DNA of 64,000 bases from Thermoplasmatales archaeon I-plasma (GCA_001856825.1 ATMD01000003.1:91796-155795); one strand, 5' to 3'; shown: positions 1,929 through 23,276, numbered from the stretch's first letter. Notes: generated by a model from the sequence alone, not told the origin. A program made the numbers and translations.

Positions 1929-3018
1929 TTGAACTCCACTCTAACGACCAGGACCCCACATTCCTTGCAGCGACTGTCATGTTTAGATAGCCATTAAGAG
2001 GAATTATAGAAGAAATGGGAGGGTTGGCAGAGTACACTGAAGGAAGTTCAATATTGACATTAGCCGGATACGTCCATTCATTCAGGGGTATCAGGCTTTG
2101 AACGTCGTTCCCAAGGATCCAGTTCACAAACTCTTCATCTATGCTCTTATGTTTGGATGAGTTCAGTATCCCCAGTCCAAGTACCTGCATCCAGGCATAG
2201 CTCTTACCATTGTGGTGGAATGCAACAGTCCCAATGGGGGTGTAATTGAAATACTTGTTGTAAGATGGATCCGTGGCGTATGAAAAAAACATCTGTCTCT
2301 GCCCTTCCTCAAACATAGAAAAACCTGAGCTCCAATCCTCAGTCACAAGTATCCCTTTCGATTTGTTCCAGAAGGATGTCCAGCTCTCGTTCAAAATCCC
2401 TTGATAGAAGGCGATCTGTCCCAGCAGGAAATCTTCGCCGTTTATGCTTGTAGTAGGGTTTTCCACGATGTACTGATTTGCTATGCTTGAGTTGTATAGG
2501 TCGTAATAAGAGAAGTTTTCAATGATGGATCGGTTTATTGGGCCTGTTAGGTTATAATCTGTAGTCAATGGAGAATATTCATAAGGTACGACGTAGCCTG
2601 ACGATTGCAGGAACGTGGAAAGTGTGCGGTTAATGTATGACTCATTGCTCACATCGAATCGATACAGAAGACCGCTGTTTGCTGCCAGGTAGGAATCTAT
2701 GTTATTCAGGCCAACAACCACATCGTATCCCGCCCCCTTTGTTTGGTTGATCTGATCGTAGAGGTCCCCGGAAGCGTATATGAGGTTCACCTTCACGTGG
2801 TACCAGTCCTCAAAATTATTTATCACGTATCCAAGAGTTTTGTTGGGATTAGCTCCGTATTGAAAGAAGGAGCCGTATGTCAACACATTTATTGTGGGTT
2901 CATTGGAAGGCAAAATGTTGGGATGAACCACGTAGACTGTAGCAGCTGCCACTAATACAATTCCAATCACTATGTACACTGCATAGTTTGTTCTTTTCTT
3001 AATTACTTCATTATTCAT
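1918..3018 (-). CDS. ABC transporter substrate-binding protein (thiamine/Fe3+-type family), membrane-anchored
   Basis: 366 aa with an N-terminal TM anchor (YAVYIVIGIVLVAAATVYV). It is the first gene of the SBP-permease-ATPase operon and lies directly behind a TPP riboswitch. Confidence 0.65.
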   Translation of the reverse strand: MNNEVIKKRTNYAVYIVIGIVLVAAATVYVVHPNILPSNEPTINVLTYGSFFQYGANPNKTLGYVINNFEDWYHVKVNLIYASGDLYDQINQTKGAGYDVVVGLNNIDSYLAANSGLLYRFDVSNESYINRTLSTFLQSSGYVVPYEYSPLTTDYNLTGPINRSIIENFSYYDLYNSSIANQYIVENPTTSINGEDFLLGQIAFYQGILNESWTSFWNKSKGILVTEDWSSGFSMFEEGQRQMFFSYATDPSYNKYFNYTPIGTVAFHHNGKSYAWMQVLGLGILNSSKHKSIDEEFVNWILGNDVQSLIPLNEWTYPANVNIELPSVYSANPPISSIIPLNGYLNMTVAARNVGSWSLEWSSIET

Positions 3019-3020
3019 CT

Positions 3021-3105
3021 TATCCCTCCGCCAGTATTATCTGGGTCAGGTTCGACGGGTCGATCTTATCGATCCTCTCAGCCCGCTTCAGCGAGCTCCC
3101 CTGCA
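3021..3105 (-). promoter_or_regulatory. TPP (THI-box) riboswitch in the 5' leader of the ABC operon
   Basis: The minus strand reads GGGGAGCUCGCUGAAGCGGGCUGAGAGGAUCGAUAAGAUCGACCCGUCGAACCUGACCCAGAUAAUACUGGCGGAGGGAUAAG-AUG. It contains the conserved CUGAGA, ACCC and ACCUGA..CCAGAUAAUACUGGCG..AGGGA cores. The GGAGGG Shine-Dalgarno-like run lies in its 3' flank. Confidence 0.85.
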
Positions 3106-3366
3106 GTACATAATTTAAACTCCCTATAAAAACGATTCTTAGCAATAGATAGGAATCACCAGAAAATACCATTGACAAATTTTTGATGCAGCAAGGTTGG
3201 TCATAGGATTTTCGTCATGGTGTAATTCTACGATGGCCATATGAAGAAATTTCAACTGACTGACCTTCTTTCCCTTGAGTTTAGCGTGATTACGTCTAAC
3301 TCAGCTCCCTTCTGAGCTTGAAGTGCTCCTTGGATAATGTTTTATTATCACTTATATTTGGGTTAT

Positions 3367-8456: not shown

Positions 8457-8469
8457 ATCCCGGCTGCCG
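8457..8469. repeat. attL-like copy of the tRNA-Tyr 3' terminus
   Basis: ATCCCGGCTGCCG is identical to 16042-16054. The flanks do not match. Confidence 0.65.
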
Positions 8470-8560
8470 AGATAATAGAGTTGGTTTAATTCTTACACTT
8501 TATTGGTGCTTGACAATATTTAAAGAAAATACGCTTTGAATAATATAAAAATATTCGAAT

Positions 8561-8574
8561 TTGAAAAATAAAAA
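8561..8574 (-). terminator. Oligo-T terminator candidate (TTTTTATTTTTCAA on the minus strand)
   Basis: Lies about 25 nt downstream of the stop of the 8597-9577 gene. The 14-mer is identical to 14385-14398. Confidence 0.35.
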
Positions 8575-8596
8575 TCTAACGAAAAGAGAGAAATGT

Positions 8597-9577
8597 CTAT
8601 TTCAATTGTGTTATTTCTATTGAGTCCACGTTTTGATTATTTACCGGGAACAGAATCTCTTGAAGGAGACCGTTCAACTGGTCCCACGTTTCCCCGTTTG
8701 GAAACCCATGCTTGCCTGACAGTAATTCCATGGTCTCCATTGTGCATGCTTCCTTTTTGAATTGTTTACCTTCATAGTAGGCCTCAGAACTCAGTGTTCC
8801 ATACCAAAATGAATTGAACCAAGCGTCCAGAGCAAACTTTTCGGAACTGAACCGGTCTTCTAGGGTACTCTCCCGTTCTACTTGGTTATAACTCATTTTG
8901 AGGAACGTGAACAGATTGATATATCCCTGTATCGATTCATTCATTGAAGTCTTTAGAGCGTCAGGGAAATTATGTTTCCTAAGATTGCTTTCATACTTTG
9001 CTGGACCTTGATTCGGAAAGTATTTCTTGAAAAATGACGAAACCCTCAGAGGATTCTCTTGGCGAGCATATTTTTTAATTTCTAGAGGGTTCTTTATAGT
9101 GAGTGGATACTTTGATTCATCCCAGAGGTCGAAATCATAAATAAGGTCCAGTATGCAATCATACCACTTCCTTTCAAAAAATGGAGATTCGATGAATTTC
9201 TCTAATCTCCGGTACTCTTGTGAGTTGCTTGATTTGACTCGTTCGCAGTCCAAAATGAAATTGAATATTTGCGAAAGGTCGTAAATGTCATTACATCTCA
9301 ACCGATAGGCACGTTTGAAGAATATCCCTTCCCCGATGCTCGTTTGCTCAATCAACCCAACCTTCTTAAGTTCTGATAGGGATTTCTCCATTATACCCGT
9401 TCCTTTGCTTCCTTCAGCGTTTAGCCTTTCGGAGAGAAACCTCCTCTTATCCCTCACTTCGGTTCCTCCCCTAAAGTTGGAGATTATGAAGTCCTCACGT
9501 TTGCGGGTTCCTTTTTCACTCTCTGCAAGAGCCAAAACGATTTCTACCTTGGTATGGGAAGACCCTCTTTTATCCAT
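8597..9577 (-). CDS. Hypothetical protein, N-terminal winged-helix-like region plus unknown helical domain (element cargo)
   Basis: 326-aa ORF. The N-terminus (KVEIVLALAESEKG...SLSELKKVGLIEQTS...FKRAYRL) looks wHTH-like. I recognise nothing in the rest. Confidence 0.4.
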   Translation of the reverse strand: MDKRGSSHTKVEIVLALAESEKGTRKREDFIISNFRGGTEVRDKRRFLSERLNAEGSKGTGIMEKSLSELKKVGLIEQTSIGEGIFFKRAYRLRCNDIYDLSQIFNFILDCERVKSSNSQEYRRLEKFIESPFFERKWYDCILDLIYDFDLWDESKYPLTIKNPLEIKKYARQENPLRVSSFFKKYFPNQGPAKYESNLRKHNFPDALKTSMNESIQGYINLFTFLKMSYNQVERESTLEDRFSSEKFALDAWFNSFWYGTLSSEAYYEGKQFKKEACTMETMELLSGKHGFPNGETWDQLNGLLQEILFPVNNQNVDSIEITQLK

Positions 9578-9660
9578 TGATAAGTCATTGTTTATGAGTA
9601 TATATATTCTTACTTATCTCTCGTCAAATGTGTTAGTATAATTATATCGAATTGCCTATC

Positions 9661-9855
9661 ATGGAATTGCAAAGGAATAGATTGCTCCGAATGAGGGCAA
9701 AGGTCGTTAAGCTAGGGAATACCGTTTATGTCCACATTTCGCCATTGATTCTAGAAGACATAAAGGCCGGGCCCGGTGATTGGGCTTACATTGAAGAACA
9801 GACAGATGGAACTCTGAAGTTAGAAATTGAACGGAAGAAGGAGGAAACACAATGA
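9661..9855 (+). CDS. AbrB/SpoVT-type DNA-binding protein
   Basis: MELQRNRLLRMRAKVVKLGNTVYVHISPLILEDIKAGPGDWAYI fits the swapped-hairpin AbrB/MazE pattern. The ATG at 9661 is preferred over the TTG at 9652. Confidence 0.55.
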   Translation: MELQRNRLLRMRAKVVKLGNTVYVHISPLILEDIKAGPGDWAYIEEQTDGTLKLEIERKKEETQ

Positions 9856-9867
9856 CCGAAATGAATC

Positions 9868-11904
9868 GTGAGCCTCGATGGCTACAGCTCTGGAATGAAC
9901 TGGTACAAGAATCAAAAAAACACAAGGAAACGGGAAAGAAGGAGGGTCAATGAGATGCTGACACAAAAAAGAGGCCCCTCTGACAAGGGGCCGGATACGG
10001 GTTTGGACTCTGAAGATGATATAGAAGATGATGTTAAAAACATTTCTAAGCAAAAGAAACCGTCCATCGTTTTCAAGACTCGATTCACCCTAAACGGAAA
10101 GCATTACGCAGAAATTCATGAGATATTTCAAATGTCAGAAAAGTCGTTTGGCACTTATCAATTCGTTGTCTACGGAAACGGAGACAGAATAACGTACACA
10201 AAAGAAGTTGAGGCCTATGATGACGATGGAAACCAAGTAATCATAAAGCCGGCCCCTCAGATTGCACAGCAGAAACTAGACCGGATATTCGAGAATGATT
10301 CTTTTGAATTTTTAAAATTTCCGCCAGGTCCTATAAACTATACCAGCGAATATGAGCTTTATCTACAGATTCGGAATTTTATTCATAAATATGCCCAAGT
10401 GCGAGAAGAAGATGAGGCCCTTTTACCGTTATGGACCATGAAGGCTACTCTTTTTGACATACTTCGAGAAACATCATTTCCGTTGATTCATATTATAGCT
10501 CCTTACGGAAAGGGAAAGTCCAGGCTTTTGCAAACGATGACTGAAATAACACCATATGGATTTTATCTCATAAATCTCAGTGCTGCCCCTCTAAAACGTG
10601 TCTCTCAGCTTTACTCTCCTATTCTTTATGTAGACGAGAAAGGGCAAATGGATAATGAGACTACGGCACTGATTAATTCAAAATTTAACCGAAATTCAGT
10701 TTATCTGAACGCTGACAAGGAAATACAGAGGGGATTTTCAGCTTTAATCGGTTATAAGCTCTATGGACCGATGGCAATGGCCGGAAGAACCCCTTTTCGT
10801 GATGACGCCATTGAATCGAAATCGTTTCAAATAGACCAGAATTTTGAATTGACAAGGGAGGATATTCCGAGAAAAATCAAAGGTGAAATCCTAGAGGAAT
10901 TTGAGCGAGAAGGTCTAGAGATTAGAGGGAAATTACTACAGTTCAGGATAAATTGGTGCGAAAAAATAAATTCAATCCAGAGTTCGAAATTCCTACAGAA
11001 ATACGAATCTCATCTAGAGCCCCGGCTATTTGAGATTATTTCATTCTTTGAGGACATAATTGAAATTATTCCTGAATTGAAAAAAGACTTTACCAAAATG
11101 TTGGAATATCAGATAATCAGGAATGTCGAAGTTGCTAAGGACACGGCAAACGGTTTGATTGCATCAACTCTTCTCTCCATTATCGGCAATGCAGAGAATA
11201 CGATTCAATATGAGATTGGAGGTAGAGAGTTCGCCGGCATTTACCTATCTTCCGTTTATGAGGAGGTGGGGCAGAATTACGCAAAACAGACAGGTAAAAT
11301 CTTATCGGCACTAGGACTTAAAACAGAAAGGCCTAGGATAAAGCTCACACGCAAGGGGAAAAATGAAGAAGAAGAGGAATATTTTAAGAGACTTTCAGTA
11401 GTAAGACTTCCTGACGAAGTCAAACTAAAAGAATTGAAACAGAGATATGACCCAGAGTTCGTGAAAGAGGAATTAGCCCGAATTTCTCAAGATGACCAGA
11501 CAAGTTTGGACGATGAGGACGATGAGGACAATGAAAAAGGAGACTCAGTAAATAAAGAAGAAGTTAATAGAAAGACATTACAACAAAAGGAAGAGTCGAG
11601 TACCATTTCTCATAGTCCTCATAGTCCTCTTAGTCCAAACACTAACTCAAATGTTACTCAAGAATCTGAAAAATCCTATGCCCAGAACAATGATTGGCAA
11701 TACTTTAAGGTAAAGGAGAGTTTCAGTTTCAGAAAATACACTTATCAGAAAGGCAATATATCAAAATTCCCAGTAGTAGAAGCCGGAAAGTTTATCGAGA
11801 AAGGATTTCTAGAATTGCCTTGTCCTCACGGCCAGATTTGGGACCCAACCTCGAAAGAATGTATTGTAATAGCTAAAGGAGGGATTGAAAGTGAGTCTCA
11901 CTGA
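9868..11904 (+). CDS. Large P-loop NTPase, putative replication protein (SF3-helicase-like) with acidic low-complexity tail and Cys/His C-terminus
   Basis: Walker A IIAPYGKGKSRL, Walker B ILYVDEKGQ, Asn-rich motif-C-like LINSKFNRNS. Acidic run DDEDDEDNEKGD. C-terminal CPHG...C. The start is uncertain (GTG 9868, ATG 9895 or ATG 9955). Confidence 0.45.
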   Translation: MSLDGYSSGMNWYKNQKNTRKRERRRVNEMLTQKRGPSDKGPDTGLDSEDDIEDDVKNISKQKKPSIVFKTRFTLNGKHYAEIHEIFQMSEKSFGTYQFVVYGNGDRITYTKEVEAYDDDGNQVIIKPAPQIAQQKLDRIFENDSFEFLKFPPGPINYTSEYELYLQIRNFIHKYAQVREEDEALLPLWTMKATLFDILRETSFPLIHIIAPYGKGKSRLLQTMTEITPYGFYLINLSAAPLKRVSQLYSPILYVDEKGQMDNETTALINSKFNRNSVYLNADKEIQRGFSALIGYKLYGPMAMAGRTPFRDDAIESKSFQIDQNFELTREDIPRKIKGEILEEFEREGLEIRGKLLQFRINWCEKINSIQSSKFLQKYESHLEPRLFEIISFFEDIIEIIPELKKDFTKMLEYQIIRNVEVAKDTANGLIASTLLSIIGNAENTIQYEIGGREFAGIYLSSVYEEVGQNYAKQTGKILSALGLKTERPRIKLTRKGKNEEEEEYFKRLSVVRLPDEVKLKELKQRYDPEFVKEELARISQDDQTSLDDEDDEDNEKGDSVNKEEVNRKTLQQKEESSTISHSPHSPLSPNTNSNVTQESEKSYAQNNDWQYFKVKESFSFRKYTYQKGNISKFPVVEAGKFIEKGFLELPCPHGQIWDPTSKECIVIAKGGIESESH

Positions 11905-12142
11905 CCCGATTAAAACGGTGCCAAATTTTGTCAAAGTCACTGACCTAAAACTTCCCGGAATAACGATTTACCATTTCGAAGTCGTGAACATAAGGGAGGT
12001 TTCAAAACATGAAAATTAGGTGCCTCTCGCTTATGTCGATATGTATTTACACCTTCTTGGCCCTCAAAACGCCTAGAATTAAATTATCTTGTTGCTCAAT
12101 AATATTTTCTCAGTTTATCACGTCAAAAATGGAGGCTAACTG

Positions 12143-12298
12143 ATGTATTGGAAATGCTCAAAGTGTGGAGAGGTGACATTCTGTGGAAGTGTGAAATATC
12201 TTAGAATCGTCAAAGAGACTCATATTTGCAAAGTTGATTCACGCTCTATTTTTTCAAAAGAGGGCTTTGGGAATGTGCCTAACATTCCTAGGAGATGA
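12143..12298 (+). CDS. Small zinc-finger-like protein (51 aa)
   Basis: My translation: MYWKCSKCGEVTFCGSVKYLRIVKETHICKVDS.... It has CxxC plus HxC, and GGAGG lies 8 nt upstream. It is below the ORF-track length cut-off. Confidence 0.3.
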   Translation: MYWKCSKCGEVTFCGSVKYLRIVKETHICKVDSRSIFSKEGFGNVPNIPRR

Positions 12299-12303
12299 AA
12301 TAA

Positions 12304-12459
12304 ATGACCGAAAAGAAAGTATTTGTAAGGCCTCACGAGAGGCAAGGACCAAAAGGAGAGACGCACGTAAAAGGGCATACCAGAAAACAAGAAGTCAAGT
12401 CAGTTGGTATGCTAAACCAAGAACTACCGCCGGAAGATGGAGAAAATGAATCAGAGTGA
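12304..12459 (+). CDS. Small basic protein (51 aa), hypothetical
   Basis: My translation: MTEKKVFVRPHERQGPKGETHVKGHTRKQ...ENESE. It overlaps the start of the next ORF, which fits the operon packing. Confidence 0.25.
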   Translation: MTEKKVFVRPHERQGPKGETHVKGHTRKQEVKSVGMLNQELPPEDGENESE

Positions 12460-12778
12460 ACAAGAAGATTTGAAACTAGGGGTATGGGTAGAAAAGCTCT
12501 CGGGTAAGAGATTCAGGGAACTCTTTCCCGAGTTAGCCAAACCGTTCTTCGACCACGGCCTAAAGATTCATAGTGCCAAGGAAATAGCGTTAACAGGACC
12601 ATTAACAAAGTTCAAGGTATATACAGACAAGCCGTCAGAAAAACTAGAGTGGTCTTTGTTGCCAATAAATAACGTACTGTCAACGAATACAAACCCTAGG
12701 ATTTATGGAGGAATGTGCGGCCACAATTGGCACACGGGAAAGCCCGTTTTATGGGAAGTGACAATTTACAATGACTGA
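12437..12778 (+). CDS. Hypothetical protein (element)
   Basis: 113-aa ORF, co-directional with and overlapping its neighbours. No motif recognised. Confidence 0.4.
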   Translation: MEKMNQSEQEDLKLGVWVEKLSGKRFRELFPELAKPFFDHGLKIHSAKEIALTGPLTKFKVYTDKPSEKLEWSLLPINNVLSTNTNPRIYGGMCGHNWHTGKPVLWEVTIYND

Positions 12779-13217
12779 CGAACGAATATCTCCGAAACTT
12801 AGCGAAACTGGATTCTACCGGATAGTCAACGAGATGATAGAAACGGCATACTTGCAGTATCACAGTTTCATAGGATTGCCGTCTGGCTCTAATCCTAACT
12901 ATAATCCGGCTCGTTCTGCTTTGTTGGCCCTTTACAATGCCGTAATCATTCCTCATGCAATGTCGCACAAAGGGGATAAAGAAGTAAAGGAGTTTCAAGA
13001 GTCTTGGGAAAGACTGAATGAAAGATATGGAGACCAATTCGAGAAAGCCAAGGGCAATTATGACGAAATAAACACAGAAGAAGCTAAGCAAGAATACATC
13101 GAGAGATTTACGGCCATTATGACTTTTCTCAATGTCCTAGGAATTACACAACTTAAGCAAAGAGCAGAAGAATGGGAAGACAACTTCATTGAAGTCAGCG
13201 AGAGGGAATTAAGATGA
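12771..13217 (+). CDS. Hypothetical protein (element)
   Basis: 148-aa ORF with start/stop overlaps on both sides (12771-12778 and 13214-13217). Confidence 0.45.
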   Translation: MTDERISPKLSETGFYRIVNEMIETAYLQYHSFIGLPSGSNPNYNPARSALLALYNAVIIPHAMSHKGDKEVKEFQESWERLNERYGDQFEKAKGNYDEINTEEAKQEYIERFTAIMTFLNVLGITQLKQRAEEWEDNFIEVSERELR

Positions 13218-14287
13218 CAGATTCGTTAGAGTTGTTGGCCCAATTGATAAGGGAAGATAACGGCATTAGCTCGGAGAGAGCCTTATCATGGGCTCAGAAT
13301 CAACAGAGGATAGTCAAGGCATTAAGCGAGGGGAGGGCAATAGTGACGTCTAGAGACGGGAACGTTGCCCCTAAGTATTGGACTAACAGCGTATTCTTTA
13401 CAATGAGGCCAACGATAGTTTACGGACCACAAGGACAAGGAAAATCTTGGCTATGTTCATATATCATTCTGAGGGCAATCATAGTCAATCCAAAATGGGA
13501 TTTCTATACAAATCTGCCCTTCTTTAATTTTGACTACCCGGAAGAATTGAAGGACATGGCCCTCCCGAGCGTTTACCTGATTAGGAGCATGAAGGAACTC
13601 CTAGAAGGAATAATCAGGTCTAGGAGAGCAGACAGAATCCCGGCTATAATATTAGACGAAATGGACGCTGAGGTAGATTCCTATTCATGGCAGAGTCAAG
13701 AATCCCAGTCTTGGAGAATATTTACTCAGTTCCAGAGACATTTCTTTGTCAAGGGCCCTATCCTAGTTTACCACTACGCTAAGCATATCCCCGGGTATCT
13801 GAGAAACGGAGGAATGGGGAGAGTAGTATTTCTCACTTATAGACAAGGGAAATACTACGTTCTAGCAGGATTCACCAGACCCAATAAGCTAGTAGTAACG
13901 GGTTATACACCTCCTTACGCATCTCATGGAGGCTATCCTTTCACGGTCAATATAGACATGAGACTTCTATACCGTAAGCTAGAGGGAGTAAGCCCTCAGA
14001 AAATACTTGATTCTATGGAATCGTCTTTAGAAGAATCAATAATCACCGATGACAAGGTAGAAAAGAAACTCAGGGAGACAGAGCGAGCAAAGGCCAAAGA
14101 AGAAAGACACAAGAAGGTTATCTCACTGAAGAAAATGGGCCTGAGTCAGATAAAGATAGCCGAAACGCTTCATATGTCAAAGCGTGATGTGAAGAAAATA
14201 TTGAGAGAAATTGACATCAGGACCAATGGTACCGATGGTACTGAAGACGGCGCCGCTGAGGATTCAGGCACAGACAAGGGAAATTAA
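13214..14287 (+). CDS. P-loop ATPase with C-terminal helix-turn-helix (Zot/packaging-ATPase-like)
   Basis: Walker A VYGPQGQGKSW, Walker B PAIILDEMDAE. C-terminal HTH MGLSQIKIAETLHMSKRDVKKILREI followed by a Gly/Thr/Asp tail. Confidence 0.5.
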   Translation: MTDSLELLAQLIREDNGISSERALSWAQNQQRIVKALSEGRAIVTSRDGNVAPKYWTNSVFFTMRPTIVYGPQGQGKSWLCSYIILRAIIVNPKWDFYTNLPFFNFDYPEELKDMALPSVYLIRSMKELLEGIIRSRRADRIPAIILDEMDAEVDSYSWQSQESQSWRIFTQFQRHFFVKGPILVYHYAKHIPGYLRNGGMGRVVFLTYRQGKYYVLAGFTRPNKLVVTGYTPPYASHGGYPFTVNIDMRLLYRKLEGVSPQKILDSMESSLEESIITDDKVEKKLRETERAKAKEERHKKVISLKKMGLSQIKIAETLHMSKRDVKKILREIDIRTNGTDGTEDGAAEDSGTDKGN

Positions 14288-14384
14288 CCTTCGGTACCAG
14301 TACCATACCCCTCTCTATTGGTGATATATATATTGCTGCGTACGCATGAAGTGAAAATTTTCAGTCTGATTTCTCAAGCGAAAA

Positions 14385-14398
14385 TTGAAAAATAAAAA
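14385..14398 (-). terminator. Oligo-T terminator candidate (TTTTTATTTTTCAA on the minus strand)
   Basis: Lies about 55 nt downstream of the stop of the 14452-14682 gene, in the convergent gap. Identical to 8561-8574. Confidence 0.3.
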
Positions 14399-14451
14399 GT
14401 GAAGAAGATAGGGGTTCACTTAGAGGCTGTTATGAGGTTTTACCTTAAAGG

Positions 14452-14682
14452 TCAATCCTCTAGTCGGCTAAGATAATCAGGGAAAGGGAAGGGGCTCTCT
14501 TTCAAGTCGCCTTTGATTCCTTCTAGGATATAGGCCTGAATAACTGATAAAAGGTCAGTTTTCTTTAGTTGTGCTATTGCTCTCAGGTCAAATAGAACTT
14601 CCTCCCCAATGTCAAGCTCTTTTTCTAGAATCTGCTCTATGTTCCTCTCAGACGCAGTATCAATATAGCTCACATTTATCAC
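14452..14682 (-). CDS. Small hypothetical protein downstream of the integrase
   Basis: 76-aa ORF, 30 nt after the integrase stop on the same strand. Confidence 0.4.
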   Translation of the reverse strand: MINVSYIDTASERNIEQILEKELDIGEEVLFDLRAIAQLKKTDLLSVIQAYILEGIKGDLKESPFPFPDYLSRLED

Positions 14683-14712
14683 CTCCGTACTTGAGCTTTG
14701 GCCTCGGTCATT

Positions 14713-16002
14713 TCAATGCACCAACTCTTTTATGAACTTATCTTTAAGCTGAGGATTATTAGCTATCTGTGATAACACTGCTTCAAGGAGCTTGTCCTTG
14801 AACTCAGGGTCAAACGTCTTCAAGAGTTCCTTGGTGCTTCCATCGATTACAGAGGAACTCAGCAAATTAGACTCTATCTCCTTTTCCTTGTTTTCTAGCT
14901 GTTTGAGTTTTTCATAATCTAGAGGACTTCCACATTGCAGACAATACTCGGAATTATAGGGATTCACTGTTTTGCATCTCAGGCAAGCCCTCATTTTCCT
15001 TATCTCCTTCGATGGATTTTCTACATGGATTCCGTTGGCCTCTAGGTATGCGTTATCTACTTCTTCGTCGTTTAGATGGACATATACAGCAGGCATCTTG
15101 CTGTCCATATTCCATCCCATTTCCTTATCCAAGACTAACGGAGGTAGTTTTGGAGCCAACTCCGTAGCTCGATTGTGCCGGAATTTATGAGGATTCAATC
15201 TCTTATTCTTGGGAAATCCTTTGGAGACGGCTCTATTCTTGACCTTTCTAAACATCGCATATATTTGCTGATGGAACATGGGTTCGCCCGTGTTTGGCCT
15301 CCCGTTCATGTCATGCCCTATACCGCAGAATAGCCATGCGTCAGGGTTAAAAGTATCAGGATGGACATTTAGCCATCCTTTCACATAACCTATCGAATCG
15401 CCTATAACTCTCACATTTCTTACCCCGGTCTTACCTGACACCATAGTTCTCATTCCATAGTTGTCAAAGACTACATCCTTTATTCGTAGTGTAAGCAATT
15501 CTCCAATTCTCATCCCCGAATCATATAGCAGACTGATAATTGCCTTGTCTCTAGCGTTATCGCATGATGCAATCAGCAAGTCAACTTCTTCTTGACTTAT
15601 CCTCCAGTCAGGTTTCTTCTTGTAGTTTATCTTGCTCTTGCTCTTGAATTTTATATCCTTCACAACTTCCGATTTCCCCAACCAATTATAGAATCTCTTA
15701 AGAGTGGCCTTGTAGCCTTCAATAGTCCACTCTGACAGGTCTCTCTTGCGAAGCTTTGCCAATGCCTCAATCACATCATTGCTATTAGGAGAAATGAAGG
15801 GTTCTCCCATGGTCTCACCGAGGGTCCTCAGATTTATTGCATGGAAGTATAGCCTATTGTAAGAGAGTTCGTCAACGTTCTCTAGGTAGTCCAGAAATTG
15901 CTTTATCTTACTCTTCTCTCCATTGCCTAATTTCGATTTCCTGAGCCTATCTAGTTCAAGCTCGTAATACTTTTTCGTGCCTACTTTAAGCTCCTCTTTC
16001 AC
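14713..16002 (-). CDS. int: Tyrosine recombinase/integrase with C-terminal zinc ribbon
   Basis: Box I SGMRIGELLTLR, HKFRHNRATELA (H-x-x-R), and VYVHL as the catalytic Tyr region. C-terminal CLRCKTVNPYNSEYCLQCGSPL. It abuts the tRNA 3' end. Confidence 0.85.
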   Translation of the reverse strand: MKEELKVGTKKYYELELDRLRKSKLGNGEKSKIKQFLDYLENVDELSYNRLYFHAINLRTLGETMGEPFISPNSNDVIEALAKLRKRDLSEWTIEGYKATLKRFYNWLGKSEVVKDIKFKSKSKINYKKKPDWRISQEEVDLLIASCDNARDKAIISLLYDSGMRIGELLTLRIKDVVFDNYGMRTMVSGKTGVRNVRVIGDSIGYVKGWLNVHPDTFNPDAWLFCGIGHDMNGRPNTGEPMFHQQIYAMFRKVKNRAVSKGFPKNKRLNPHKFRHNRATELAPKLPPLVLDKEMGWNMDSKMPAVYVHLNDEEVDNAYLEANGIHVENPSKEIRKMRACLRCKTVNPYNSEYCLQCGSPLDYEKLKQLENKEKEIESNLLSSSVIDGSTKELLKTFDPEFKDKLLEAVLSQIANNPQLKDKFIKELVH

Positions 16003-16041
16003 GTCTTGTTATGGCATACACGGATTTAAACCATCTGGTCA

Positions 16042-16054
16042 ATCCCGGCTGCCG
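16042..16054. repeat. attR-like repeat, overlapping the tRNA-Tyr 3' end
   Basis: ATCCCGGCTGCCG equals the last 12 nt of the tRNA (minus strand) plus 1 nt. Confidence 0.65.
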
Positions 16055-16144
16055 GATTTGAACCAGCGACCTGTGGATGGCGGCGGTTGCGCCACAGCGC
16101 TGTCCCTCTACAGTCCACCGCTCTACCAACTGAGCTAAGCCGGG
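16043..16144 (-). tRNA. tRNA-Tyr (GUA) with a 29-nt intron at the canonical 37/38 position
   Basis: Hand-folded: acceptor CCCGGCU/AGCCGGG with the archaeal C1-G72 pair and discriminator A. D arm GCUC-AGUUGGUA-GAGC. Anticodon arm GUGGA-CUGUAGA-UCCAC, interrupted after G37 (about 16079-16107). T arm GCUGG-UUCAAAU-CCGGC. No encoded CCA. Confidence 0.85.
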
Positions 16145-20301: not shown

Positions 20302-22405
20302 TTAACCGACAATGCGGAAAGACTGGTCATTATTTCCTTTTATTATGGTTCCTTTTTTATTCATCATTTCAAGCGTTCGCTCGACCTGGCTTTGGTCCAC
20401 CCCAGCACTCCTAGCTTCCTCTATGATATCCTTGAGTGAGGCCCACCTGTTTGGGCTCGCCTCCATCAGTCTCCTAATGATATCGGTCAGGGAGAATGCT
20501 GCCTTCCGATCCTTTTGGGCAAATCCTGTGAGGATAATATCCACGTCCGGAATACCGTTCACAACAGTTGTCTGGTTCAGGAAAGATTCCATGAGCCTTT
20601 CTGCTCTTTCAACATCCTGTTCATCGACCCTATCTGAGAGCCTTACCCTTGCTGAGGCTTCTGATAATCTCACTAATGCTTCTAATTGTCGTGGGGTAAT
20701 GGAGACTGTACCCTGCTTTGATGTTGATGCCCTCCTGTCGACATAGAACTTCTTAATCATGTCGCTGGCCTTAGGTGACATAAGAGGGAAGCATGTTTTC
20801 CTAGCATAGATTATGTATTTCTTCAGGAAGTCGTGTTCAAAAACTGGATATACCTGCGCCTTTTCTCCTCCACGTCCACTTGCTATACTTTCTCCTGCTC
20901 TGTGAACTTTGAGTATGTAATCTGCCATATCGTTGTCAACCTTTCCTGGCCTATCAACAATGACGAATATCAGGTCAAATCTTGAAAGCAATGTGGCAGG
21001 AAATTCTGTTTGAGCAGGGAAAGGCTCATTTTCGTCATACCTGCCGAATTTAGGATTTGCGGCGCCGAGGACAGCGCATCTGGACATAAGAGTTGCATTG
21101 ATTCCAGCCTTGGAAATTGAGACGGTCTGCTGTTCCATCGCCTGATGCATTGCACCGCTGTCTTCCTTGTCCATCTTGTCGAGTTCATCAACAGCTGCAA
21201 GTCCACCGTCTGCAAGTACCAGTGTGCCTGGCCTCTAAAGTCCATCTACCTTCAGACATCTCGTCTTTTACCGCAGCCGCAGTTAGGCCTGCAGCCGAGC
21301 TGCCCTTTCCTGACGTATAAACCGATTTAGGCGCAATGTTTGCAGCGTAGGTCAGGATCTGGCTCTTTGCAACGCCGGGGTCACCGAACAGAAGGACGTG
21401 AATGTCCCCCCTTATGTAAGTTCCATCCTCAAATGCTTTCCTTTCGCCTCCAAATAATTGGAGTATTACGGCCTCCTTCACCATCTCGTTTCCGAAAACG
21501 GCGGGTGCTATGCTGCCTACAAGTTTATTGTATATTTCTGGGTCCTTCGCAGCCTTCTTAATCTTTTTTATGTCTTCATCGTCAAGCATTACTTCGTCAT
21601 ACTCTGAGGACTCCCTCTCTACGTACATTGCATCAAGGTAAATGTCAAACTGTCTCGACATACTCTGATTCATCTGTGATTTTTGTTTTCCCTTTAATAT
21701 CCCATTTATTGATACCCTGTCCCCCGGGTTGTTCTTGCCGCACAGTTCGTCTTCTAGATGGACAATAAGTCGTGCAGGCTGAGCTGCGCCTCTAAGAAAT
21801 TCTGGCTTCTCTTCTATTGTAATAATTTGCGTATCGTAGTATGTTGACCTTTCAGGTATAAACTTGAATTTTACCTCATCTTTTGGCTTTCCGCACTTGC
21901 TGCAGTTGAAAGGCTCCATTATCCTGTTTCCGGTTTGTGGATAAAGGTTAATCTCTCTGCAATAGCTGCACTGAAATGCAGCACTTACGATAGTCGGTAC
22001 AACTTCTGAAACCCTCTTGACGACGCCGTCAACCTGCAAAAAGGTGTTGAGGTCATCGCTTCTTAATTCCCTTATATTCCTCTTTATATCTGGAAGTTTT
22101 GAAGAGATTGAGATTCTTACCCTTGCATCCTTCCTAGACATGAAGTCCTCTGAGAGAAGACCCTCTCTCTTGCCATCTTCACCTCTTCCGTATAGGACAT
22201 CTTTCAGGAGACTCAGATACTCCTCAGGATATCTTAGAAATAGCAGTGCAAAATTCATGTCAATTTTATCCATCTCTTCATAGCTTATTGTCAACGTTTT
22301 ATCCTTGGAATCGCTTGAATTTATTCTTGATATATCCTCGCTTTTTGATTCTAATAGCTTGTTCCAGAAGCTTCTGACCTCCTCATCCCTAAAATATTCT
22401 CTCAT
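20302..22405 (-). CDS. mcm: MCM replicative helicase, reading frame broken by one extra base near 21227-21232
   Basis: N-terminal ORF 21188-22405 has the C4 zinc finger (CSYC...CSKC) and Walker A GDPGVAKSQ. C-terminal ORF 20302-21174 has MEQQTVSISKAGI, SRFDLIF and a wHTH. Removing one base gives WTLEAGTLVLADGGLAAVDELDKMDKED (Walker B). Confidence 0.9.
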
Positions 22406-23203: not shown

Positions 23204-23276
23204 GCAGGTGTTGTGTAGCCTGGTAGCACAAAGGCCTTCCAAGCCTTTAGCCCGGGTTCAAATCCCGGCACCTGCA
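23204..23276 (+). tRNA. tRNA-Gly (UCC)
   Basis: Hand-folded: acceptor GCAGGUG/CACCUGC plus A73. Anticodon arm AAGGC-CUUCCAA-GCCUU. T arm CCGGG-UUCAAAU-CCCGG. 73 nt, no CCA. Confidence 0.8.

Follow-up and report, generated by a model that had tools for sequence, protein, structure and literature searches.

A cryptic integrated element, probably of plasmid type, at the intron-containing tRNA-Tyr gene of the Thermoplasmatales archaeon I-plasma

Plasmids of the pRN1 family in the Sulfolobales are cryptic, 5-14 kb in length, and possess one large replication protein (ORF904, a PrimPol-SF3 helicase) together with small DNA-binding regulators; some of them integrate at tRNA genes. Phage-inducible chromosomal islands (PICIs/SaPIs) and the Sulfolobus elements pSSVx and pSSVi are satellites that carry an integrase, regulators and a helicase-type replication protein, and have no capsid genes. 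Two types of archaeal integrases, pNOB8 and SSV, were reportedly distinguished by She et al., the int gene of the SSV type being split on integration. The cryptic integrated elements (CIEs) of Thaumarchaeota are small, multigene elements with a tyrosine integrase, often directed to tRNA genes, whose boundaries have been verified by empty sites in relatives (Krupovic et al. 2019, PMC6563490). They encode replication proteins of the mobile genetic element (MGE) type (AEP, S3H, MCM) and many orphan genes, and show no virion or conjugation signature; their attachment (att) sites measure 8-25 bp (median 17), including one verified 13-bp site, whereas the cores of crenarchaeal elements measure 29-69 bp (PMC6563490). 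Here an element from the Thermoplasmatales archaeon I-plasma is compared with these systems. The DNA analysed, referred to below as the window, is a stretch of 64,000 nucleotides (GCA_001856825.1, ATMD01000003.1:91796-155795), in which the element extends from 8457 to 16054 and measures 7,585 bp (~7.6 kb). By its features it is a CIE in the sense of the thaumarchaeal classification. Neither the I-plasma genome paper nor recent work on the mobile elements of acid mine drainage (AMD) archaea was found to describe it.

The element is a site-specific insertion directly 3' of tRNA-Tyr(GTA), absent from near-identical strains. For the comparison of loci, the RibD_C protein on the left and the SepF protein on the right were traced to dozens of contigs from other metagenomes and metagenome-assembled genomes (MAGs). 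At least 10 contigs have RibD_C, tRNA-Tyr and SepF adjacent, with RibD_C and SepF ~700 bp apart, and these are the empty tRNA-Tyr sites for which the original prediction had proposed a search; at least 12 other contigs carry the same ten-gene block inserted. The 13-bp core is present once at empty loci and twice at occupied ones. When the left flank of the window (to 8456) is joined to 16042 onward, the predicted junction matches the empty site of the contig L003 at 798 of 800 bp, and the chromosomal flanks are 99.5-99.7% identical in occupied and empty loci alike. From this exact junction it follows that the element is real and that its ends are exactly the repeats. The site is empty also in L002, from a more distant lineage (flanks 92-97% identical), so that the empty site represents the ancestral state and the insertion the derived one. 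The features at the ends of the element are the following.

8457-8469, no strand: attL, the core copy (13 bp) at the tRNA-distal end, a fragment of the tRNA-Tyr 3' end; exact repeat, with the junction verified against L003 and no second copy in empty-site genomes.
16042-16054, no strand: attR, the core copy that forms the 3' end of tRNA-Tyr; exact repeat and empty-site junction.
16043-16144, minus strand: the target of integration, tRNA-Tyr(GTA), whose anticodon loop holds an intron of ~29 nt; Rfam RF00005, 60.2 bits.
16021-16035, no strand: a degenerate second copy of the tRNA T-arm within the element, adjoining the core; 13 of 15 positions identical to 16053-16067.

A perfect 13-bp repeat bounding a 7.6-kb element at an intron-containing tRNA-Tyr gene had been predicted, and both exact copies of the core, ATCCCGGCTGCCG, are found at their places, with the tRNA recovered by Rfam. 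No third copy occurs elsewhere in the window, even at one mismatch. Direct reading confirms that the attR copy is made up of the tRNA-Tyr 3' end CGGCAGCCGGGA (the last 12 nt) and one flanking base. The repeat alone is not significant, because the window holds 75 same-strand repeated 13-mer pairs, against ~37 in shuffled sequences; the weight of this pair comes from its position and from the comparison with other genomes. The anticodon was read directly as GTA (Tyr), and the Rfam match shows the ~29-nt insertion in the anticodon loop; ARAGORN, run on the window, did not call a tRNA-Tyr at 16043-16144. The predicted attP junction is ACCATCTGGTCA-ATCCCGGCTGCCG-AGATAATAGAGTTGG and the predicted attB junction GGATAACGG-ATCCCGGCTGCCG-GATTTGAACC. 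Six bp from the att core lies the T-arm-like copy (CGGATTTAAACCATC versus CGGATTTGAACCAGC), one of only two matches (16021-16035 and 16053-16067) to a T-arm pattern in the window, where 0.1 are expected; it may be the relic of an attP that was older or longer, or of a tRNA targeted earlier.

In agreement with the prediction that core metabolism lies outside the repeats, the element is flanked by housekeeping genes, with RibD_C, thermopsin and IMPDH to its left and SepF, H+-PPase and MCM to its right. The element proteins correspond to EQB65251-EQB65260 (AMDU3, scaffold GG699226). One strain with an otherwise empty site (L004 8800-9560) has an insertion of ~750 bp of its own between the RibD_C gene and tRNA-Tyr, which lacks an att repeat and codes for a protein of 170 aa whose N-terminal part contains a hydrophobic segment.

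Among the products of the element are a tyrosine recombinase, intact and with its catalytic motifs, and a helicase whose family is recurrently paired with primases. The larger genes, and the small gene next to the integrase, are listed here.

14713-16002, minus strand: int429, an intact Xer-like tyrosine integrase (429 aa) with a C-terminal zinc ribbon; PF00589, 4e-24.
14452-14682, minus strand: p76, a small open reading frame (ORF) just downstream of int429; a 37% identical homologue in L046, none detected in L053.
9955-11904, plus strand: rep649, a predicted P-loop replicative helicase (649 aa) resembling superfamily 3 (SF3) and MCM helicases, with no primase domain; Walker motifs and model fold.
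13214-14287, plus strand: atp357, a P-loop ATPase (357 aa) of predicted RecA fold with a C-terminal helix-turn-helix (HTH); Walker motifs, AF2 fold and HTH domains of homologues.

The integrase had been placed directly inside the tRNA-proximal end of the element, and int429 does start 39 bp from the core. Besides the PF00589 domain it possesses an N-terminal SAM-like domain. It scores 96 bits against the XerA_Arch model, under the model cutoff, and its best match in the PDB is XerA of P. abyssi (4A8E, 1.2e-13). The motifs R165, H272xxR275, W297 and Y307 were found in the translated sequence, the catalytic assignment being made by eye, and the protein is at least 99% identical in the compared occupied contigs L013 and L017, which come from other samples. 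Since attP lies outside the ORF, upstream of it, the gene is not split on integration. An integrase gene that stays intact likens the element to the pNOB8 type; the likeness is one of integration style, the nearest relatives of int429 by sequence being XerA/XerCD. The unsplit integrase gene, a single intact 429-aa ORF with the core upstream of its start, sets the element apart from the SSV type. The p76 family accompanies the int429-type integrase in the related element L046 and is not part of the backbone, and the related element L053 has the other integrase family. Because p76 travels with this type of integrase, it may be a directionality factor for int429.

The helicase rep649 contains a Walker A motif (GKGKS) and a Walker B motif (DE). 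Most of its 106 homologues are unnamed proteins encoded in Thermoplasmata MAGs, and in the family alignment G185, G187 and K188 (GxGK), D227 and E228 are invariant. No match to rep649 was found in Pfam, PHROG or NCBIfam. Its AF2 model (pLDDT 75.7) has as top Foldseek matches replicative helicases from viruses and mobile elements, namely MCM7, SCCmec Cch, the NrS-1 helicase domain, poxvirus E5/D5, papillomavirus E1 and the SaPI5 primase-helicase, with probability ~1.0 and E ~1e-4. Of these matches, E1, D5/E5 and NrS-1 are SF3 helicases; they stand beside MCM and Cch, all at low TM-scores, and there is no Pfam SF3 match. Independent support for a role in replication comes from recurrent primase partnerships in the family. 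Homologues of ~1000 aa (P0088 and P0094) carry an N-terminal Prim-Pol domain, a separate Prim-Pol gene is located directly upstream of the helicase in the related elements L049 and L059, and more distant relatives, encoded on IMG/VR contigs, carry DnaG-type primase domains (zinc ribbon and Toprim) in fusion. On the modelled fold and these partnerships, rep649 is taken as a predicted replicative helicase. A Prim-Pol domain was matched neither in rep649 nor in any other ORF of the element. By tblastn, rep649 has no match in 50,697 phage and virus records, nor in the plasmid collection; sequence-profile searches of the PDB with the helicase, ATPase and p326 families gave nothing useful. In the scan of genome contigs a single-protein query returned nothing, and an alignment-based query returned 5 loci.

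The second ATPase, atp357, possesses Walker A (GPQGQGKS, with the core GQGKS) and Walker B (ILDEMD, with the core DEMD) motifs, and its homologues carry HTH_23 or Sigma70_r4 domains. The AF2 model (pLDDT 70.8) matches RadA, Rad51, KaiC, DnaB and Rho in Foldseek. A hidden Markov model of the family, searched against 1.84 billion cluster representatives, returned 45 proteins at E <= 1e-10, most of them family members. No relatives of atp357 were found in IMG/VR viral contigs, nor by tblastn in the phage and virus records. A few distant family members match the Pox_A32, DUF87 or Zot models weakly, and the viral fold matches include a Zot protein and A32-like ATPases. Two P-loop ATPases had been predicted, and Walker A and B motifs are indeed present in both proteins, the one probably a replicative helicase and the other showing a RecA-like fold with an HTH.

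The remaining genes of the element are short or orphan.

8597-9577, minus strand: p326, a conserved orphan divergent from the replication operon; 67% identical in L053.
9652-9855, plus strand: p67, a possibly AbrB/MazE-like small DNA-binding protein; TIGR02609, E 5e-4; the public call is of 64 aa from 9661.
9852-9953, plus strand: a 33-aa ORF between p67 and the helicase gene; in the public gene tables of L001 and L021 only.
12143-12298, plus strand: p51a, a small Cys-rich ORF, possibly a zinc ribbon; weak match to Zn_ribbon_RanBP, E 0.045; 100% conserved in L013 and L017.
12304-12459, plus strand: p51b, a small basic ORF; 56% identical in L053.
12437-12778, plus strand: p113, an orphan ORF overlapping its neighbours; no family match in Pfam, PHROG or NCBIfam and no transmembrane segment.
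12771-13217, plus strand: p148, an orphan ORF with a 4-nt overlap with the ATPase gene; weak match to DUF6809, E 0.0026; 47% identical in L053.

The homologues of p326 number only 12, all at least 52% identical. The protein has no match in Pfam, PHROG, NCBIfam or PADLOC, and none in the PDB by profile; it is possibly a regulator. Its positional analogues in L049 and L059 were considered as homologues, and the comparison shows that they are not homologous. For p67 the evidence is weak and convergent. Its match to TIGR02609 (AbrB-type antidote) lies under the model cutoff and that to an 'addiction module antidote' in the PDB has E 0.18; the positional homologue in L059 reaches 26.8 bits with PF04014, over the cutoff, and aligns to p67 at E 8e-4. 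The AbrB-like regulator of the original prediction is weakly supported, and p67 may be AbrB/MazE-like. After searches of Pfam, PHROG, NCBIfam and PADLOC, p113, p148, p76 and the small ORFs are orphans.

Within the limits of profile sensitivity, no virion, packaging, conjugation, transposase or defence family was found among the element proteins with Pfam, PHROGs, NCBIfam and PADLOC. The maximum of the Kyte-Doolittle 19-residue window does not exceed 1.1 in any of the ten proteins, so the element has no membrane proteins. The lack of a capsid, portal or spike gene had been noticed from the sequence already, and neither Pfam nor PHROG matches nor a transmembrane segment contradict it; with no virion genes detected, 'integrated plasmid or very reduced provirus of unclassified type' was a fair description. 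The 64-kb window contains no CRISPR array. Three contigs were considered as episomal forms and rejected. L021 (7,826 bp, helicase 100% identical) is an integrated form with host flanks of 101 bp and 127 bp and is probably an assembly bubble, and L051 and L052 are integrated or partial copies.

Compared with the described systems, the element is like the thaumarchaeal CIEs in its integrase, short att, tRNA target, predicted replication protein of MGE type, orphan genes and lack of a virion or conjugation signature. It is unlike them in its host, a member of the Thermoplasmatota from acid mine drainage, and in its helicase and ATPase, whose families have no Pfam model. Its 13-bp core differs from the 29-69 bp of crenarchaeal elements, and it is only against these that the original remark on the shortness of the core is true, because att sites of 8-25 bp are normal outside Crenarchaeota (PMC6563490); the related elements described below have cores of 13, 14 and 15 bp. 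With the pRN1 family it shares a replication protein whose relatives are fused or adjacent to Prim-Pol, as in ORF904. The lack of a Prim-Pol domain nevertheless separates it from the pRN1-type plasmids, and it is also without CopG and PlrA homologues and without any match in the plasmid database. To PICIs/SaPIs and to pSSVx and pSSVi it is similar in gene architecture only, the SaPI5 primase-helicase and SCCmec Cch being structural matches of rep649, and it differs from PICIs/SaPIs in having no recognised packaging-redirection genes (equivalents of terS, cpm or ppi) and no known helper virus. It is unlike archaeal proviruses (pleolipovirus, spindle-shaped, tailed and PRD1-like) in that PHROG and Pfam give no capsid or spike match and no ORF has a hydrophobic segment.

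Sister elements were found in other Thermoplasmata. In L053, which belongs to a different Thermoplasmata genome, the backbone recurs with its gene order unchanged (p326 67%, p67 73%, rep 65%, p148 47% and ATPase 68% identical). Its integrase is a highly divergent tyrosine recombinase that is non-homologous to int429, and it lies 3' of tRNA-Arg(TCT) with a 15-bp core. L049 has an integrase of this second family (42% identical to that of L053), a Prim-Pol gene and the helicase, and is located at tRNA-Cys with a 14-bp core. In L046, whose target is tRNA-Gly(TCC) and whose core measures 13 bp, a 64% identical helicase is accompanied by a p76 homologue and by an integrase that shares 40% identity with int429. 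The order is the same in every case: intact tRNA, element, partial 3' tRNA copy. The sisters thus keep a helicase-centred backbone, while integrase family, primase and tRNA target are swapped, with cores of 13-15 bp. Mosaicism is seen also at the I-plasma site itself, where a common variant (L013, L016, L062, L063 and L065; 7113-8168 in L013) has the body of the helicase gene (window 9973-11875) replaced by 835 bp encoding proteins of 147 aa and 166 aa. In L013 the ATPase region is 93% identical as against 99.6% for the flanks, and the element is therefore mosaic, recombining within a mobile pool faster than the chromosome diverges. The helicase-replaced variant could be an alternative replicon or a non-autonomous derivative. 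Its 166-aa protein has, by eye, a ribbon-helix-helix-like N-terminus and a weak match to phrog_270 'replication initiation' (E 0.006).

The I-plasma element and an L053-type sister co-occur in the metagenomes ERZ27237019, ERZ27237044 and ERZ27236928, in different hosts, and their co-occurrence would allow the kind of module exchange that the mosaic variants display. The occupied form is present also in the sample ERZ27237319 and in the Richmond Mine I-plasma data sets. Some helicase and ATPase homologues are labelled as coming from Micrarchaeaceae or Parvarchaeota MAGs, DPANN symbionts of Thermoplasmatales (P0036/L071, P0042, P0043 and P0125). Spread across phyla to Micrarchaeota was considered and set aside, because the one 'Micrarchaeaceae' contig inspected, L071, carries acyl-CoA dehydrogenase, permease and formamidase genes, which makes mis-binning more likely.

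The locus is probably a 7,585-bp cryptic integrative element of plasmid type. In the mechanism proposed, int429 would have recombined the 13-bp core of attP, situated a short way upstream of the int gene, with the same sequence in attB, made up of the last 12 nt of the tRNA and one further nt, an integration that would leave the tRNA intact and mark the far end with a 13-bp partial copy. The excised circle would be replicated by its own helicase rep649 together with a host primase, as no primase is encoded by the element. Control of the replication operon would fall to the AbrB-like p67 and perhaps also to the divergent p326, and p76 may serve the integrase as directionality factor. With its RecA fold and HTH, atp357 would act on the DNA of the element, whether in initiation or loading, in partition or in transfer. 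Lacking recognised virion or conjugation genes, the element may spread vertically, by passive transfer or with a helper.

Several observations weigh against a plasmid-type element. The attP 26-mer (TGGTCA + core + AGATAAT) is absent from IMG/VR and JGI metagenome contigs by exact search, so that the circularised junction (8469 joined to 16042) suggested in the original prediction was not recovered there, and the predicted circular junction of the sister L053 is likewise absent from both. All ten p326 gene contexts shown, chosen from 24 contigs, are integrated. With no attP junction and integrated contexts only, present-day excision and autonomous replication are hypothetical. The element has neither a primase nor an identified origin, and the Foldseek TM-scores are low (0.2-0.5) for the rep649 and atp357 models, both only moderately confident, those of rep649 being low because the protein has several domains. 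Finally, five of the ~10 element proteins have no detectable homology to anything characterised, and a novel capsid protein is therefore possible among them. The missing attP junction and episomal contigs, together with the loss of the helicase gene in the common variant, would also fit an immobilised remnant, a fixed island left by a past integration, its presence or absence going back to old divergence of the strains or to deletion by recombination of the 13-bp repeats, with the integrase no longer at work. This is improbable, since all ORFs are intact, including an integrase at least 99% identical in L013 and L017, both att cores are perfect, and the flanks of occupied and empty chromosomes differ by only ~0.4%, while parts of the element are mosaic and diverge much faster than the chromosome, which requires exchange with other elements. 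A chance pair of 13-mers, with nothing but ordinary strain-specific chromosomal genes between the copies, can practically be dismissed. Repeats of this length are common, as the 75 pairs in the window testify, but the insertion boundaries coincide exactly with the repeat at empty sites, which refutes coincidence; one copy is, moreover, the tRNA 3' end beside an integrase, and three sister elements have the same anatomy at other tRNAs.

A helper-dependent satellite or highly reduced provirus would provide its own excision and replication and receive its capsids from a Thermoplasmatales virus yet to be identified, or form them from its own unrecognised capsid proteins, with the p113-p148-ATPase-HTH operon serving packaging or capsid hijacking. 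The layout, with an integrase at one end, divergent small regulators, a helicase and an orphan block, resembles that of the phage-inducible chromosomal islands and of pSSVx and pSSVi, and the SaPI5 primase-helicase is among the structural matches of rep649. The weak matches of distant ATPase-family members to Pox_A32, DUF87 and Zot, and the Zot protein and A32-like ATPases among the viral fold matches, point in the same direction, as do the viruses observed on AMD Thermoplasmatales-associated cells (cited in PMC12647753). To our knowledge, however, pleomorphic and spindle-shaped archaeal viruses of such size require membrane proteins, and the element has none. No element protein matches a structural or packaging family of PHROG, the modelled ATPase fold appears nearer to RecA, RadA, KaiC and DnaB than to packaging ATPases, no ATPase relatives occur in IMG/VR viral contigs or phage records, and no helper virus has been identified. 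On balance a satellite or reduced provirus is unlikely. A more specific proposal would make this element, together with its sisters, the archaeal equivalent of the phage-inducible chromosomal islands, that is, small tRNA-integrated satellites of Thermoplasmatales viruses yet to be found. Such satellites would possess no more than an integrase, a replicon based on the helicase and the conserved orphan operon p113-p148-ATPase-HTH, which would hijack the helper capsid, and integrase modules would be swapped to retarget tRNAs. This proposal is speculative and improbable.

There are also some observations on other parts of the window and on the related contigs. A second integrated element at tRNA-Gly 23204-23276 was considered and rejected, as there is no att-like repeat and no paralogue of the element proteins in the window. 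The region downstream of this tRNA-Gly(TCC), to ~26000, is low in GC (0.37-0.39) and strain-variable in gene content (L001 versus L003), and the 3' end of the tRNA agrees at 12 of 13 positions with the att core of the L046 sister element. The host MCM gene (20302-22405, minus strand) is split into ORFs of 290 aa and 405 aa by one extra G (CCTGGCC versus CCTGCC in L003), and all other strains have a single MCM of 700 aa; the split is probably an error in the 2009 composite assembly and could be a real frameshift. A TPP riboswitch is located at 3006-3112 of the window (minus strand, 62.7 bits). An HNH endonuclease-associated RNA (HEARO, 100 bits) is found at 2659-2880 (minus strand) of L049, a Thermoplasmatota MAG contig, ~5 kb from the sister element.

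The element is of a well-known kind, and no current idea is overturned by it. What is new is a Thermoplasmata family in which integrase and primase modules can be interchanged, built around a helicase and an ATPase-HTH protein that lack family models. To a lineage of uncultured acid-mine archaea without described plasmids or viruses, the element adds a cleanly delimited mobile element verified by empty sites. It is of use in the annotation of MAGs, because such islands are easily mis-binned, and its integrase, att site and replicon are possible parts of genetic tools for acidophilic archaea. The family is anchored by a Thermoplasmata helicase, lacking a Pfam model, that combines freely with Prim-Pol, with a DnaG-type primase or with none, and it uses two unrelated tyrosine-integrase families to reach different tRNAs through cores of 13-15 bp.

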